A stretch of DNA of 64,000 bases from Escherichia phage EPFV3-03/2025. Each line of letters opens with the position of its first letter. Position 1 is the stretch's first letter. The notes beneath the pieces are model-generated. The model was not told where the DNA came from. It worked only from the letters and a program-made list of their open reading frames with translations, and searched no databases. Location: the sequence record PV435126.1. The stretch is one strand, 5' to 3'. Of this stretch, positions 12,949-54,927 are shown piece after piece. A program made the translations under genes and the position numbers.

Positions 12949-13008
12949 TAAGATGTGAGCATAAAGGGGAGGAACTCCTCCCCACAAAACTGAGGAGAGC
13001 ACCAAACG

Positions 13009-13311
13009 ATGAAGCGTTACAAACCATACACTTTTGAAATCGATTTCGAACTTGACGATATGCTCACTGTAGAAGCTCAGGCAGTTGTCCAGTTGCCAGA
13101 TCCGGAGTGCCGTGATTCTGATGTTGATTATTATGGATTTAGACAGATTACCGATTTACATGTTTACCACAACGGAGAGGAGGTGGACTTTCACCAACTC
13201 CCGAACGATCTGCGACACTCTATTTACAAACGTGCAGCCCGTGAACTAGAATCATATCTGGATGCAGCGACAACAGCAGCAGCATTTGCTGAAGAAGTAG
13301 GGGGATTCTAA
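13009..13311 (+). CDS. hypothetical protein (100 aa)
   Basis: ORF in co-oriented array. Confidence 0.45.
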   Translation: MKRYKPYTFEIDFELDDMLTVEAQAVVQLPDPECRDSDVDYYGFRQITDLHVYHNGEEVDFHQLPNDLRHSIYKRAARELESYLDAATTAAAFAEEVGGF

Positions 13312-13718: not shown

Positions 13719-14201
13719 ATGTCAGATTTCATGTGGAAGGTAGGCTATGCCTCTCCTGAAATGTGCGAGGCCTGCTTTGTGAAAATAGGCCGCGAGGATA
13801 TCGACAAAGTGATCCTTAAGTTTCGTGATGTGTCTGTGATCGGCAACCGAGTGCTTAAGCACTTAAAGAATCTGAAGCTCACCAAGAAGAAGTTCTTCGG
13901 ACTTTTCGAAGAGAAAGTCGATGCTTGGACCCATTGCATTCAGGAAGCTAAATCTCACTATAGTGCTATCGTTACCCCAGAACGGGTAGCCAAGATGGAA
14001 GGATTTATCAACAGCACAGAGTTTGAGTGCCTAAAGGCTGCCCTTGATAGCTATCCAAAGTGCCTCAAACACCTTGACAAGTATGTAGAAAAGGATGGGG
14101 AAATGTATCTCACCCTGGACGCATACTATGAGATGCAAGAAATTTTAAATTTAGATTTGACATTGGTATCCACCGAGTATACAATAGGTATCCGGGTTTA
14201 A
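13719..14201 (+). CDS. hypothetical protein (160 aa)
   Basis: ORF followed by intrinsic terminator. Confidence 0.5.
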   Translation: MSDFMWKVGYASPEMCEACFVKIGREDIDKVILKFRDVSVIGNRVLKHLKNLKLTKKKFFGLFEEKVDAWTHCIQEAKSHYSAIVTPERVAKMEGFINSTEFECLKAALDSYPKCLKHLDKYVEKDGEMYLTLDAYYEMQEILNLDLTLVSTEYTIGIRV

Positions 14202-14209
14202 CACTAGGT

Positions 14210-14234
14210 CCTGCCCGAAAGGGTGGGGCTTTTT
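14210..14234 (+). terminator. rho-independent terminator (copy 1 of duplicated hairpin)
   Basis: CCTGCCC-GAAA-GGGTGGG stem-loop followed by GCTTTTT; same hairpin recurs at 25612. Confidence 0.65.
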
Positions 14235-14252
14235 GCATTAGGAGACAGCAAA

Positions 14253-15017
14253 TTGAAATTTATCTACAAAGAACACCACCACAAAGGTGTTGTGTGGAGT
14301 CTATTTGATGGGTCTGGTGGTGCAGTCATTGACTGGGCAAAAGCTGGGTATCTGTGCCTGTGCTTTAATGCAGAAGGTGCTGACCATGGTAGCTATGCAG
14401 AGGTGATAACCGATCATCCCAACATTCACTACGTGGATTATTGGATTGACCCGTGGTTCCCTCAAGAAACTTTTTGCATGTACCCAGCTCCAGACTTTAT
14501 TCTTGCATTTCCTCCGTGCACGCATTTAGCAGTATCAGGTGCTGCACATTTTAAGAAAAAGCTGGCTAAGGACCCCCTGATCCAAATTAATGCTGTAAAA
14601 GATGCTCGGGTTGCGGAAGAGCTGGGAGAGATCTACGATTGCCCGTGGCATGTAGAGAATCCTGTGGGTGTTATGTCCACACTGTGGCGCAAACCTGATT
14701 ACCGTTTTCACCCTTCGGATTATGGCGGGTATTTACCGGAAGATGATGTAAACCCATGGTTTCCTGAATTTATAGCTCCACGTGATGCCTATCCAAAAAT
14801 AACTTGCGGATGGATAGGTAACGGATTTATAATCCCGGCCACAAAACCTGTCCCGCAGATAGTGGATGCGGTTAGTGGTTATTCTATGCAACACGCTAAG
14901 CTAGGTGGAAAGAGTGCAAGGACGAAGATGATTCGAAGCCTTACACCACGTGGCTGGGCTAAAGCTGTATTCTTAGCAAACGAGCCTGCAGTAAGGAGCA
15001 GAATTAATGGGCAGTAA
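14253..15017 (+). CDS. DNA cytosine-5 methyltransferase-like protein (about 254 aa)
   Basis: Motif I LFDGSGG, motif IV AFPPCTHLAVSG (PC-Thr instead of PCQ), motif VI HVENPVG; start placed at TTG 14253 after AGGAG because ORF-track start lies inside the terminator. Confidence 0.5.
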   Translation: MKFIYKEHHHKGVVWSLFDGSGGAVIDWAKAGYLCLCFNAEGADHGSYAEVITDHPNIHYVDYWIDPWFPQETFCMYPAPDFILAFPPCTHLAVSGAAHFKKKLAKDPLIQINAVKDARVAEELGEIYDCPWHVENPVGVMSTLWRKPDYRFHPSDYGGYLPEDDVNPWFPEFIAPRDAYPKITCGWIGNGFIIPATKPVPQIVDAVSGYSMQHAKLGGKSARTKMIRSLTPRGWAKAVFLANEPAVRSRINGQ

Positions 15018-17143: not shown

Positions 17144-20100
17144 ATGAGCATGTGGTCGTTCGATTTTGAGGCCTCTGGCTTGCTGGAAGACCCAGATCTT
17201 TATTATCACTGCGGTTTGTTTAAAGAGCTGAATAAGAACCGTTTTATGCTGTTCCTCCCCCTAAATGACCGCACACACTACTCTGAAGAGGATGTGGAGA
17301 AAGCTAAGAACTTCATTCTGGCAAAAAAGACCCTTTATACAGATTTTGAGGCTCGCATAGCAGATTTTTCAGAGTTGGAAGGCTGGCTTACAGGTAATTC
17401 AGATTGGTCACCTACGGCTTTGAACTGTCATAACTGCTACAGCTACGACTTTATGCTGATGGAAAGATTATCCGGTATTCATTTTGATATGTTCCGTGAT
17501 CCTAAATGCATGGGAACTATCAACGACCACCAGGTTAATCTGTTTGATACGTTAGCGATGAGTCGAATCTTGTGGCCTGACCGCCCTTTGCCAAAAGGTT
17601 GTCCGGACGCAGTATTCAATCCAGTTACCAAGAAAATGCAGCCTGTTGGGCCTCATGGCCTTATGGCATGGGGCTATGCCCTTGGTAACCAGAAAGTTCA
17701 AATCGATGACTGGCGTGAGCTTCCGCTGTGGAAGTATGTGGATCGTGTGTTCGAGGACGTTATCATTCAGGAGTTGCTCTGGAAGGAGTTGGTAGCTGAA
17801 TCAAAAGGTGTATTCTACGGCAAATCTGACATGCAGAACTTTATGTATGACCCTGCCAAAGAGAAGCCTAAAGGATTCAAGAAGATTACCTGGAAGAATG
17901 CATTACGCCGAGGCATGCTGCAGCATTTCCTGATGGAGCTGCAGGCTCGACAGGGTGTGTATTTCGACATAGATGGGGCTATTGCTTTACGTGACCGCTG
18001 CGATGCGTGGATGAAAGAGATCGCTGATCGTGTTGAACCACAACTTCCTTTAAAAGAGTTATCAATGTCTCAGCGGCCTAAGTTCCCTGAAAAGCCGTTT
18101 AACCAGGATGGGACAATCTCTAATAACGGTTGGAAATGGTTAAAAGACAAGCTTGGCTATCCTGTGGATATGGGTGCTTTAGAATTCAAAGCTCCGCCTA
18201 AGCGAGCCTTTACCTCCACAGGAGATGTCAGCAAAATGGGGATAAAATGGTGTGAAGAGATGGGCTGCAAAGACCCCGATAAGATGGCTGATTTCTTAAG
18301 GGGGTATATTAAAGGAACCTCTACACCGCACCCTTTACCTAAAGAACTAATGGATCAGGCAATAAGTGATCTGCAGCAGAAGCGGATGCCTGACTGCAAG
18401 ATACCTATGAAGATCAGCAACCAGGACGACATCAAGCGATACCTGATCAGTGCTGGTTGGCTCCCAACAATGTGGAGAACTAAGGATGTAACTAAAGACA
18501 GCAAGAAGAAAGCTTTACCTGATGCAGATGTTGATGCACGAGTATATGCATATATGGACGAGCTTTTGGAGTCAGAGTATTGTGACCTGATTATCAACTT
18601 CTGGAACAAAACTGATGCCAAGTTCCAGACAACCGTGCACAAGTTCCGAAGCTTCCCTAACTCAGAAAGGATTAAAAAGGAAGTGTTTGGGAAGATACGT
18701 AGAAAAGCCAGAGCGCTTATTACTTCTCCGCAACTGAAAGATACGTTTGGACACCTGTGCCCGAATCTTGAAAAATTGAACGGGGAGATGGCTAAAGATA
18801 TCGTTTTGTGGTTATCATTGCGAAACCGCAGATCGGTCCTTGATCCAATCAAGGAGGATAAGGTTGATACTGGTCTTCTTAATCATCCACGTTTGAAGAT
18901 TGACCATAAGCTTCCTGCTAAAAGTTCTGGATTAACAAACACTTCAAGACAGAAACACAGCATTTGTGCAAACATGCCTAAACCATCTCCTAAAGTGGTT
19001 ATGGGTAAAGAGATGCGTAGTCTGTGGGGTGTTCCTCCAGGATACTTTGAGATCGGTATTGACGGGTCTAACTTAGAGCAGCTTATTGGGGCTTGGGGTG
19101 CCTTTGAGTTTGACAACGGCCTGTATTATGATGTTGTAAGTAACGGCGATGCACACTGTTATTCAGGAGATACACAAATTCTCACGGAGAAAGGGTGGGT
19201 GAGGTTTGAAGATCTTGATCCGGGAACACAAGTGTTCCAGTACGATCACAACACCTCGTCGATGAACCTTGTTACTCCATTAAATTACGTTAAGCGTAGT
19301 TATTGTGGGGATATGTATCATTTCCACAACAGCAGTGTGGATTTTATGGTTACAGATCAACACAGGATGCTGACCGTGGATCACAGAAGCAATAAATTGT
19401 TTGAAGATTTGGCAAAAGACCTGAAAGCAGGTAAAGGGTCTAATTCAGGAAGAAGGTTTATCCATGCGGCAGAGTTTTATGGGAATACAACCTTATCTCC
19501 TGCCCAGGTTAATTTGCTTATTGCTATTCACGATGATGGGTACTTGCATACAAATAAGGACGGCAGCATCGTGTGCAGGATTCAGGCCGGGAAGGGCAGA
19601 AAAGTTGCAACGCTTTTAGATACTTTTTCTGCTCTAAGCCTTAGTTATGTAGAGCAGAGCGGGAAAACCACAAAAGGAGGCTTACTGGCGAGAAGGTTCC
19701 AATTCCACGTTCCGTCCTGGGTATTTGAGTTTTTGGACAGCAATAAGGATTTCACCTACAACCTGATGGACCTTGATAAAGAATCTAAAAACCTGTTTAT
19801 AGCTTCTTTATCTAACTGGGACGGGTGGGTATCTCCCGAAGGTGGAAAAGTTGCCTACTACTCTCAGGCCGAGTGCAGGAAGAAATCTGTAGAGGTTGTG
19901 TCTGCGCTGGCTACTCAGTGTGGTTTACGGAATAATACGGTGGCGATTCACAAAAAAGGTCGTTCCGTACAGCACAGAATCACGATTGGTAGCAAACAGA
20001 GAGCAGGGTTGCTGACACTATCTAAAGAGCCTGTCGGGGTGAGCGGTTCTTTGGTTTATTGCGTTACCGTCCCTTCTGGAGCAATCATTGTGAGAAGGAA

Positions 20101-20536
20101 TGGTAAAGTGGCAGTGTGCGGTAACTGTAATAACGCCAAAGCTTACTCTTCTGTAGCAGGCAAGGAGATTTCCCGTAACGATGGTAAGCCTGTCACGTAC
20201 GGTGTTATGTACGGGGCACAAAAAGATAAAGTTGCAGACATGCTGGATATCTCTCCAGAGTTGGGGCAAAGGGTAATCGATGCGCTTTGGGATGCCAACC
20301 CAGGTCTTAAGGGGCGTAAAGAGGATCTGGAGAAATTCTGGGAAGCAACAGGTAAGAAATTTATCTACTCTTTTGACGGTCATGCCATCTGGACCCGATC
20401 TAAACACTCTTTACTTAATGCATACCAACAGAATGGTGGTGCATCGTTGTGTGACTTAGTTGGGATACTCATGCACCACCAAATGGTGAAGCGTGGGTGG
20501 TACGATGAAGGTGTCCGTCGTATTATTTATTACCAT
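17144..20536 (+). CDS. family A DNA polymerase, exon 1 (contains intein)
   Basis: 3'-5' exo motif SFDFEASG; motif A-like DGSNLEQL...GDAH; T7-like motif B RNDGKPVTYGVMYGAQ after the intein; ORF lacks motif C unless spliced to exon 2. Confidence 0.9.
19157..20125 (+). mobile_element. intein (323 codons) with LAGLIDADG-like endonuclease motifs inside DNA polymerase
   Basis: Begins CYSGDTQIL (block A), TDQH (block B), LLIAIHDDGY and FIASLSNWDGW (LAGLIDADG-like), ends ...VYCVTV...RRNGKVAVCGN followed by Cys. Confidence 0.75.
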
Positions 20537-20812
20537 AAATAACATTGTGGCTTCATAGAGTAATCTATGTCGAATAACCTCTTTAACTGCGGGAAGCCTA
20601 AACCTTATGGCAAGGTAATCCGCAACGAAGCGCTCAAAAGAGCGAACGCTCAGAGGCCATTCCGAAAGGAAGTAGACCAGCAAGTGCGGTCGAAATGGGA
20701 GGATTCCTGTGGTTGCTTATCATAGGAATATGAGATGGTCCGATCCTACGTGAAAACGTATGGCTATGCACGTAATGGTGCGGGGTAGCTTAACGACCTA
20801 CCTGAACTATTG
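20537..20812 (+). mobile_element. group I intron (276 nt, no ORF) in DNA polymerase gene
   Basis: Starts after exon U (cat|), ends with G before gat; P-like aactgcgggaag 20585-20596, Q-like aatccgcaac 20617-20626, S-like gagatggtccga 20732-20743; splicing restores in-frame HDE motif C. Confidence 0.6.
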
Positions 20813-54112: not shown

Positions 54113-54397
54113 CTACCAGGTTACTGTCAAGTAGGCAACCGTGTTATTTTTCTCCGGAGAGATGCCAACAACATCCACCTGCAGACCTCCTGCCCTCAAA
54201 TCCCCAACGATGTGTGGGAAGTAGTCTGAGAGGTGCGATGGGAGATTTATCGAAAATCCGCATCCCAGAAAGCCTGCTAACGCTTTATTTTGTATCTCCC
54301 CTACAATCGCATCATAAATGGAGTTAAGCTCGTCAGGGAGCGTTACAGGGCGTTTTAGCGCTAACTGGTGCAACTTGTCCTTAGCACTCATTTTCAT
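54113..54397 (-). CDS. hypothetical protein (94 aa)
   Basis: Start moved to ATG 54397 giving ATGA overlap with methyltransferase stop. Confidence 0.45.
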   Translation of the reverse strand: MKMSAKDKLHQLALKRPVTLPDELNSIYDAIVGEIQNKALAGFLGCGFSINLPSHLSDYFPHIVGDLRAGGLQVDVVGISPEKNNTVAYLTVTW

Positions 54398-54927
54398 TTC
54401 AGGTCTACCTCTGGAGGTGCCAACCACATAAATGGCGGCAGGTCTAAACGGTTCTTCTTGTCCCACACAAAATATGCATATGCTTGCCCGTCAGTTCTGC
54501 CATTTGATTGGAATGATGGACGCTTAGATATTGTGATCACAGTGGTAGGTGCATTATCAAGCCACCATTCAAATCTGGCTTTGCTTTCCAGAAAATTAAG
54601 ACGCAAAAGCATAATAACTACGTCAGCATCTTTCAACGCCTTGTCTACAAACTCACGAGCCAGGCTGTACGGTGGGTTGGTGATAATACAGTCAACATGG
54701 TTGTATTCTGTATTCAGATAGTCAACACCTTCTTGGATTTCTCCCCATGCAGATCCTAACGGCATACGGGAGTAGAACACACCTGAGGCGCTATTTCTGC
54801 AAGGCTCTAGGTAGGTCCAGTCTTCTGGGAACGGAATAAGGTCATACAGCCCTTCTGCACACCACTCCGGTGTCACATACTCGTCGTAAGCGTTACGTTG
54901 TTCATCAGGTTTTCTAGCACAAGTCAT
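54394..54927 (-). CDS. putative DNA N6-adenine methyltransferase, phage Dam-like (177 aa)
   Basis: TPEW...LEPC...CIITNPPYS catalytic NPPY motif. Confidence 0.5.
   Translation of the reverse strand: MTCARKPDEQRNAYDEYVTPEWCAEGLYDLIPFPEDWTYLEPCRNSASGVFYSRMPLGSAWGEIQEGVDYLNTEYNHVDCIITNPPYSLAREFVDKALKDADVVIMLLRLNFLESKARFEWWLDNAPTTVITISKRPSFQSNGRTDGQAYAYFVWDKKNRLDLPPFMWLAPPEVDLK

Follow-up and report, generated by a model that had tools for sequence, protein, structure and literature searches.

Two conserved, apparently orphan methyltransferase genes of a Vequintavirus: a predicted short Dcm-like cytosine-C5 enzyme and a minimal gamma-class enzyme most likely acting on adenine

The genome of Escherichia phage EPFV3-03/2025 (sequence record PV435126.1) carries, within the 64,000-nucleotide stretch analyzed here and referred to below as the window, two widely separated genes with methyltransferase motifs: gene A, with the motifs of a cytosine-C5 DNA methyltransferase, and gene B on the opposite strand, with the NPPY motif of an amino-methyltransferase (Table 1). 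Searched by megablast with three of its stretches, the window shows 90 to 97% identity to about 120 records and belongs to the genus Vequintavirus, the rV5/FV3-like E. coli myoviruses with genomes of about 137 kb. Gene A sits in the order rIIB, helicase, small open reading frames (ORFs), gene A, primase/helicase and DNA polymerase, with its 3' end overlapping the primase/helicase ATG (15007) by 11 nt; gene B adjoins a ClpP-like protease gene and lies near that of a PhoH-like protein. Both are core genes in about 115 genomes, present in essentially all matching Vequintavirus records, and sister genomes label gene A as 'Dcm-like C5 cytosine methyltransferase' or 'DNA cytosine methyltransferase' and gene B as 'putative N6 adenine methyltransferase', with tRNA or rRNA methylase appearing as the name of the latter in some records. 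In related genera of the Vequintavirinae the same methyltransferase pair has been recognized via HHpred (PMC7344957; PMC11370258). The pair is already known, in kind as well as in instance, with near-identical genes in more than 100 Vequintavirus records.

The two genes are also strikingly constant. In comparisons of the window with FV3, with rV5 and with Aya, a more distant relative, gene A shows 39 to 54 synonymous and 0 to 4 non-synonymous differences, corresponding to a ratio of non-synonymous to synonymous rates (dN/dS) of 0 to 0.016, and gene B a dN/dS of 0.018 to 0.04; the gene B protein is moreover at least 99% identical in 108 phage records. Both genes are under strong purifying selection.

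By its sequence, gene A is one of the many short (220 to 260 aa) phage proteins that make up a large family of 'Dcm-like' cytosine-C5 DNA methyltransferases. The profile phrog_757, 'DNA methyltransferase', matches it with an E-value of 4e-87 over aa 10-261 of a 264-aa ORF, and every residue that is invariant in a 24-sequence alignment is present, Asn39 being the single deviation from the wider consensus. A search of 5.8 billion proteins yields 3551 homologous clusters, nearly all of 220 to 260 aa, and an exhaustive profile search among 50%-identity representatives returns 2024 proteins at E ≤0.001, 201 of them at E ≤1e-30. By tblastn the family occurs in 1503 phage records, spanning Vequintavirus, Drexlerviridae, Dhillonvirus, Klebsiella phages of the Webervirus type (e.g. 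KP36), RB49-like phages and Stephanstirmvirinae. Motifs I, IV and VI, which mark the PF00145 family, are all present in gene A, and conservation across 101 diverse family representatives singles out the same positions: the presumed nucleophile Cys89 is found in 98 of the 101 (97%), the following Thr90 in 89 (88%) and Glu135 in 100 (99%), while Asn136 (93%), Pro137 (98%) and Lys182 (98%) are nearly as constant. The residue after Lys182 is lysine or arginine in most relatives (KK/KR) and isoleucine in this phage (KI). At the motif II position (aa 39, nt 14367-14369), which closes strand 2, 92 of the 101 representatives have aspartate; asparagine takes its place in an enterobacterial-phage clade that includes both this phage and the homologue of phage KarlJaspers (CFNYDD).

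An AlphaFold2 model of the protein (pLDDT 89, pTM 0.89) points in the same direction. Gene A has the class I fold of S-adenosylmethionine (AdoMet)-dependent enzymes in the C5-methyltransferase arrangement, and the modeled protein comprises a C5-methyltransferase catalytic domain with some 55-65 further residues. Its very small recognition region would be made up of 20 residues inserted behind the DYGG stretch and some 40 more that precede IRSLTPRG, an element resembling motif IX (R-x-L-T-x-R-E). When the family profile is run against the sequences of the PDB, only C5-methyltransferases are returned, at non-significant E-values and with motifs I and IV in register. The preliminary description of this DNA, made from the letters and their ORFs, had proposed C5-methyltransferase motifs I, IV and VI, a PCT signature and a length of 254 aa for gene A, and both the ORF and the motifs are confirmed. 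Its emphasis on the shortness of the protein holds as a measurement but not as a peculiarity, for 220 to 260 aa is the family norm; gene A owes its small size to a target-recognition region cut down to about 40-60 residues.

A threonine after Pro-Cys had likewise been put forward as unusual and as a possible indication of altered chemistry, and neither idea is supported by comparison with the family. Besides the 89 threonines among the 101 representatives, 117 of the best 120 homologues have PPCT and the remaining 3 have PPCD, and in one and the same alignment the residue in question is asparagine (PCN) in DNMT3B and glutamine (PCQ) in HaeIII. Direct information on the chemistry comes from a relative. 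The KarlJaspers gene bas06_0055 (711 bp, 236 aa), annotated 'Dcm-like C5 cytosine methyltransferase', carries FPPCT, and its full-length identity to gene A is 54% (E 2e-86); C82, E128, K175 and K176 of this homologue align with C89, E135, K182 and I183. The genome of phage K42 is 95.4% identical to that of KarlJaspers/Bas06, and mutants of K42 that escape retron Ec86 all have hits in the 711-bp dcm gene; expression of K42 Dcm reportedly raises C5-cytosine methylation on the multicopy single-stranded DNA (msDNA) of the retron, as measured by liquid chromatography coupled to mass spectrometry (LC-MS), C82A/E128A/K175A/K176A K42 Dcm produces no such msDNA methylation, and a functional equivalent of motif VIII has been proposed for this enzyme (bioRxiv 10.1101/2023.08.16.553469). 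A later paper restates the 5-methylcytosine (5mC) result as accepted (PMC12916289). Because threonine is the norm of the family and the K42 relative makes 5mC, altered chemistry on account of PCT is unsupported.

The same evidence bears on the broader proposal that gene A transfers a group other than methyl, for example carboxymethyl from carboxy-AdoMet, a compound that E. coli makes, or that it acts on a substrate other than DNA. The use of carboxy-AdoMet was considered on account of a hit to CmoX (PDB 8yf3). In its favor, gene A lacks the canonical Gly-Asn of motif X and has an arginine (R233, in TPRG) just before the last helix, and in CmoX, a phage DNA cytosine C5-carboxymethyltransferase with an SPPC motif and usually a CmoA neighbor, an arginine in place of HhaI Asn304 selects carboxy-AdoMet (PMC12783734). 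We nonetheless hold this to be very improbable: the K42 homologue yields 5mC in E. coli MG1655 by LC-MS, R233 is kept in only 67% of the family, other members having Leu, Met, Glu or Lys, where an essential cofactor-selecting residue would be expected to be more conserved, and ordinary enzymes also differ in the third position of the motif, as the PCN of DNMT3B illustrates.

Gene B is a bare gamma-class, TaqI-like catalytic (Rossmann) domain that has no target-recognition domain. Its profile match is phrog_799, 'DNA methyltransferase' (E 8e-67), and its 312 homologous clusters are mostly of 160 to 230 aa and share the elements D-x-Y-x-TP, LEPCxGxG, D-x-IITNPPYS, LLRLNFLES, KRPSF and TD-x3-Y-x-W-x-x-W. 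A profile of 27 gene B homologues matches M.TaqI (E 0.0013) with TP, LEPxxxxG and NPPY aligned, and fold matches include type I M subunits, MmeI, PacII, BseCI and CamA. Pfam matches fall below threshold (EcoRI_methylase, E 4e-4; Dam PF05869, E 1e-3; Eco57I), and against the curated cut-offs gene B scores 19.2 bits where PF05869 demands 28.1 and 16.1 bits where TIGR01712 demands 97; one relative (P0203) does carry a PF05869 domain. The neighborhoods of gene B relatives in three further phage groups reveal no conserved partner gene, and in a P2-like Aeromonas phage a canonical C5 DNA methylase is encoded two genes away from the homologue. Among phages, small adenine DNA methyltransferases that lack a recognition domain of their own do exist (the T1 Dam type, PF05869). 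Gene B is most likely an N6-adenine DNA methyltransferase. The gene B ORF with its NPPY motif was correctly recognized in the preliminary description, as was the methyltransferase character of both genes, which the phrog_757 and phrog_799 matches bear out; the epithet 'phage Dam-like' is justified by the PF05869 match only in part, since that match stays below the curated cut-off and the fold is of the gamma-class TaqI-like kind.

It is important to weigh here whether gene B might instead modify RNA (as an rRNA or tRNA m6A enzyme) or protein and thereby adjust host translation. A catalytic Rossmann domain devoid of a recognition domain would suit such an enzyme, as would a neighborhood of ClpP-like protease and PhoH-like protein with no replication genes and the tRNA or rRNA methylase names in some records, and in the fold comparison rRNA m6A methyltransferases score nearly as well as DNA enzymes (METTL5 13.0, ErmC' 12.8, DIMT1/KsgA 11-12). 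The best matches in both sequence and fold are nevertheless DNA adenine methyltransferases, the N-terminal 'TP' and the NPPY motif align with those of M.TaqI, and the P2-like phage homologue is found in an early region near a C5 DNA methylase, so that we judge a non-DNA substrate to be unlikely.

Table 1. Positions of the two methyltransferase genes, their motifs and nearby elements in the window
Feature	Position	Strand	Details and basis
Gene A, predicted short Dcm-like cytosine-C5 methyltransferase, 254 aa	14253..15017	+	TTG start, TAA stop
Motif I FDGSGG, aa 18-23, loop that follows strand 1 and binds AdoMet	14304..14321	+	aligned to M.HaeIII FSGAGG
Motif IV PPCT, aa 87-90, Cys89 presumed catalytic nucleophile	14511..14522	+	alignments
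Motif VI ENP, aa 135-137, Glu135	14655..14663	+	conservation
YPKI, Lys182 before strand 7, in place of motif VIII Arg-x-Arg	14790..14801	+	alignments
Variable loop, aa 194-216, likely target-recognition element	14832..14900	+	alignments
TPRG, motif IX-like (cf. canonical 'LTPRE'), leads into C-terminal helix	14943..14954	+	
Shine-Dalgarno AGGAG, 8 nt before TTG	14240..14244	+	sequence read
Terminator-like hairpin and T run, between upstream ORF and gene A	14206..14231	+	
Sigma-70-like promoter match TTGACA-17-TACAAT, 11/12, upstream of gene A	14157..14185	+	consensus match only
Gene B, minimal gamma-class amino-methyltransferase, 177 aa	54394..54927	-	ATG start, TGA stop
Gene B N-terminal YVTP (motif X-like 'TP'), order X-I-IV	54868..54879	-	alignments
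Gene B motif I region LEPC(RNSASG)	54799..54810	-	aligned to LEPACAHG of M.TaqI
Gene B motif IV NPPY (TNPPYS), aa 84-87	54667..54678	-	T83, N84, P85 and P86 invariant in 27 homologues
Empty site of third methyltransferase	12949..13008	+	comparison with FV3 and rV5 (compare L001:2986-4388)

Neither gene has a candidate restriction enzyme at its side, in agreement with the preliminary description: no nuclease family is found by Pfam or PHROGs among ten neighboring ORFs, the four upstream of gene A and the six small ones around gene B having no Pfam family and returning either PHROGs of unknown function or weak non-nuclease matches. As far as the sequence can tell, both methyltransferases appear to be orphans, lacking the adjacent cognate endonuclease of a restriction-modification system, unless one of these small proteins of unknown function acts as one.

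In the mechanism that would follow from the standard C5 reaction, Cys89 of the PPCT motif would attack C6 of a flipped-out cytosine, Glu135 of ENP would protonate N3, and the methyl group of AdoMet would pass to C5 to give 5-methylcytosine. Gene A lies in the replication module, overlapping the start of primase/helicase, and is therefore expected to be made while phage DNA is being copied. Both enzymes would modify certain short sites in the phage DNA before host enzymes can, and such methylation would block a subset of host restriction enzymes. Restriction evasion by self-methylation is the textbook reading for orphan phage methyltransferases. We consider methylation of phage DNA at short sites, blocking some host restriction, to be the most probable role of the pair, and for gene A in particular anti-restriction self-methylation is a plausible fit to its placement in the replication operon. 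The joint reading, in which gene A is a C5 and gene B an N6-adenine methyltransferase, both of them orphan core enzymes that methylate phage DNA against some restriction, is on balance likely.

Several observations weigh against it, beginning with the identity of gene A itself. The protein has no PF00145 match even at E-values up to 10 and no NCBIfam match, while 17 of 24 close relatives do match PF00145 weakly (best E 1.3e-6). The canonical motif VIII (Gln-x-Arg-x-Arg) is not recognizable, Lys182 standing in its stead, nor is the Gly-Asn of motif X, where G234-F/W235 precedes the last helix. A profile comparison with M.HhaI, alone and with 120 homologues, is not significant; the M.HhaI sequence used is identical to PDB 10mh, and the HhaI homologues are all more than 70% identical, which makes for a shallow profile. 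Sensible alignment in this comparison is confined to motifs I, IV and VI and the DYG stretch, the C-terminal half being unreliable. The variable loop, furthermore, is of a 'GYSxQHxKLGG' type, shared by gene A with other Vequintavirinae and preceding a conserved GGKS element, as opposed to the 'DNPGWxKxGG' type of K42/KarlJaspers. For K42 a CCWGG target has been assumed from host Dcm, its single line of support being a mutation of the msDNA site (bioRxiv 10.1101/2023.08.16.553469); since the variable loop differs, this specificity is not transferable to gene A, whose target may differ from that of K42 if the loop reads DNA. In gene B, the glycine loop of motif I bears a two-residue insertion in Vequintavirus, where distant relatives have LEPCxGxG.

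At the level of the phage, the Vequintavirinae were 'exceptionally susceptible' to the restriction-modification systems tested in the BASEL study, which concluded that they have no effective protection from restriction-modification (PMC8594841). A literature search for methylome or digest data on rV5-like phages turns up predictions only, together with an XbaI digest of rV5. Nor do the 24 palindromic or methylation-related sites counted in the window show any strong avoidance or enrichment that would point to a target, the observed/expected ratios being 0.82 for CCWGG and 0.99 for GATC. It follows from the BASEL sensitivity that any protection is limited to sites which that study did not probe: broad protection of the Vequintavirinae is argued against, and a site-limited one is possible, the BASEL panel covering few sites.

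Some of these points could be taken to mean that at least one of the genes is an inactive relic or encodes a DNA-binding protein of purely structural function, since gene A lacks the motif VIII and X signatures and has asparagine at motif II, gene B has the insertion in its motif I loop, and the phages are restriction-sensitive (PMC8594841). Such a view is hard to reconcile with intact catalytic residues, a dN/dS of at most 0.04 and the near-identity of the gene B protein across 108 phage records, and the asparagine is shared by the KarlJaspers homologue, whose K42 relative is active; we therefore consider it very unlikely.

A more serious contender is that both enzymes are active and have been selected for a role other than restriction evasion, with a mark that serves the packaging, replication or mismatch handling of replicated phage DNA, the timing of gene expression and interference with other host systems as candidates. 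The sensitivity of the Vequintavirinae to the restriction systems tested is in keeping with such a role (PMC8594841), and the position of gene A within the replication operon, overlapping the primase/helicase start, is compatible with it. Both genes are, in addition, nearly invariant across the genus, where anti-restriction genes are often variable and where a third, Mod-like methyltransferase is in contrast a gain/loss cassette, and a member of the gene A family acts on DNA other than that of the phage, namely retron msDNA. On the other side, none of the alternative roles has direct support, the few recognition sites spanned by the BASEL panel leave room for protection elsewhere, and dcm-less K42 mutants are viable escapers (bioRxiv 10.1101/2023.08.16.553469), so that dcm is dispensable for growth in K42. 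We regard a role of this kind as possible, though clearly less likely than protection of phage DNA at a limited set of sites.

Still more specific readings, with gene B as a minimal m6A methyltransferase that has no recognition domain and acts on host rRNA or tRNA or is targeted by a phage partner, or with the family of gene A as a stripped-down C5 enzyme of very short or relaxed specificity, appear rather improbable. Were either true, classical site protection would not be what the core methyltransferases are for in this very common group of coliphages, and a non-classical role would fit the reported restriction sensitivity of the Vequintavirinae.

The reading frame of gene A begins with TTG, a start that is conserved in FV3, rV5 and Aya and annotated in FV3 and rV5 as part of the same 765-nt coding sequence. 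A GTG at 14223 was considered and rejected as the start: it lies inside the terminator-like hairpin, and the conserved TTG at 14253 has a good ribosome-binding site. At the place homologous to the promoter match upstream of gene A, the rV5 record annotates promoter P231. The promoter match is followed by the hairpin within 20 nt, and for two functional elements placed shortly before gene A this would be an odd order. On the other strand, the TGA of gene B overlaps the ATG (54394-54397) of the ORF that follows it, at 54113-54397 (94 aa, phrog_12158, function unknown), and this overlap suggests that their translation is coupled.

Upstream of gene A, the window lacks a third methyltransferase that FV3, rV5 and many relatives possess, a type III Mod-like adenine methyltransferase of about 441-447 aa; the missing part extends exactly from its own ATG up to that of the following gene, and the gene is also absent from roughly 1/4-1/3 of the listed Vequintavirus records. 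In FV3 the cassette is flanked by similar hairpin-bearing intergenic stretches (GGGGAGG...CCTCCCC), sequences that could mediate its gain or loss. The ORF at 13009-13311 (100 aa, unknown function) has a weak match (E 5e-5) to phrog_1573, a profile of 138 positions labeled 'DNA methyltransferase'; as the ORF is too small for a methyltransferase, the label is probably annotation carry-over. Downstream, the DNA polymerase ORF (17144-20542, 1132 aa) has a 323-aa in-frame insertion (19157-20125) relative to the FV3 polymerase, with a cysteine at its start, Gly-Asn at its end followed by cysteine, and a Pfam Hint_2 match (E 6e-5) below the gathering score: the insertion resembles an intein and may include a homing-endonuclease domain. 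In FV3 the polymerase gene is directly followed by a free-standing gene for an HNH endonuclease (compare L001:11015-11659), which is absent from the window (around 20601-20671). The intein-like insertion and the HNH difference together mean that the window and FV3 differ in mobile elements around the polymerase.

Between 16 and 39 GenBank records of the MG0656xx series, titled 'Campylobacter phage' with Campylobacter jejuni as host, are more than 91% identical in DNA to E. coli Vequintavirus, and one of them, of 35 kb, encodes a gene B protein that is 100% identical; that these unannotated records come from a Campylobacter host looks doubtful.

While the discovery value of these results is small, their useful outcomes are corrective. 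'PCT' emerges as the mark of short Dcm-like phage enzymes, a very large family which Pfam and NCBIfam largely miss. For the gene A family a cost is documented as well, in that methylation can trigger retron Eco1 (PMC12916289; bioRxiv 10.1101/2023.08.16.553469), and triggering of this type by family members bears on host range. Vequintavirus is a group of phages in wide use for both typing and therapy.

Set beside known systems, gene B shares with M.TaqI and other gamma-class N6-adenine methyltransferases the motif order TP, LEPxxxxG, NPPY, but the 170-residue C-terminal recognition domain of M.TaqI is absent from its 177 aa; the type I M subunits in turn use an S subunit, of which gene B has none. 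With the T1/HP1-type enzymes of PF05869 and TIGR01712 it has in common the small size of phage proteins of about 170 aa with (D/N)PPY, yet by the curated thresholds it is not a member of either.

Gene A follows M.HhaI and M.HaeIII in its FxGxG, Pro-Cys, Glu-Asn-x and DYG-like stretches, which occur in the same order, and departs from them in its length, with 70-75 residues fewer, in the far smaller size of its recognition domain, in having PCT rather than PCQ and Lys182 for Arg-x-Arg, and in having no Gly-Asn motif X. The catalytic domains of DNMT3A and DNMT3B resemble it in their short recognition loop and in the non-Gln residue after Pro-Cys (PCN), but they are eukaryotic, oligomeric, equipped with regulatory domains and 12% identical, and nothing here shows a specific evolutionary link of gene A to DNMT3. 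CmoX, which is defined by SPPC plus an arginine at the HhaI Asn304 position, differs from it in several respects: gene A has FPPC and not SPPC, its sole candidate arginine (R233) is conserved in only 67%, and its relative makes 5mC. The nearest likeness is to the Dcm of K42/KarlJaspers, the trigger of retron Ec86 (Eco1) (bioRxiv 10.1101/2023.08.16.553469). The two differ in the variable loop (GYSMQHAKL in gene A, DNPGWAKT in KarlJaspers), in the second lysine of the KK pair, which is isoleucine in gene A, and in their setting, gene A residing in a myovirus and its counterpart in siphoviruses (Drexlerviridae); they are alike in family, in size class (236 vs. 254 aa), in FPPCT, ENP, YxK and TPRG, and in being orphan genes of lytic coliphages.

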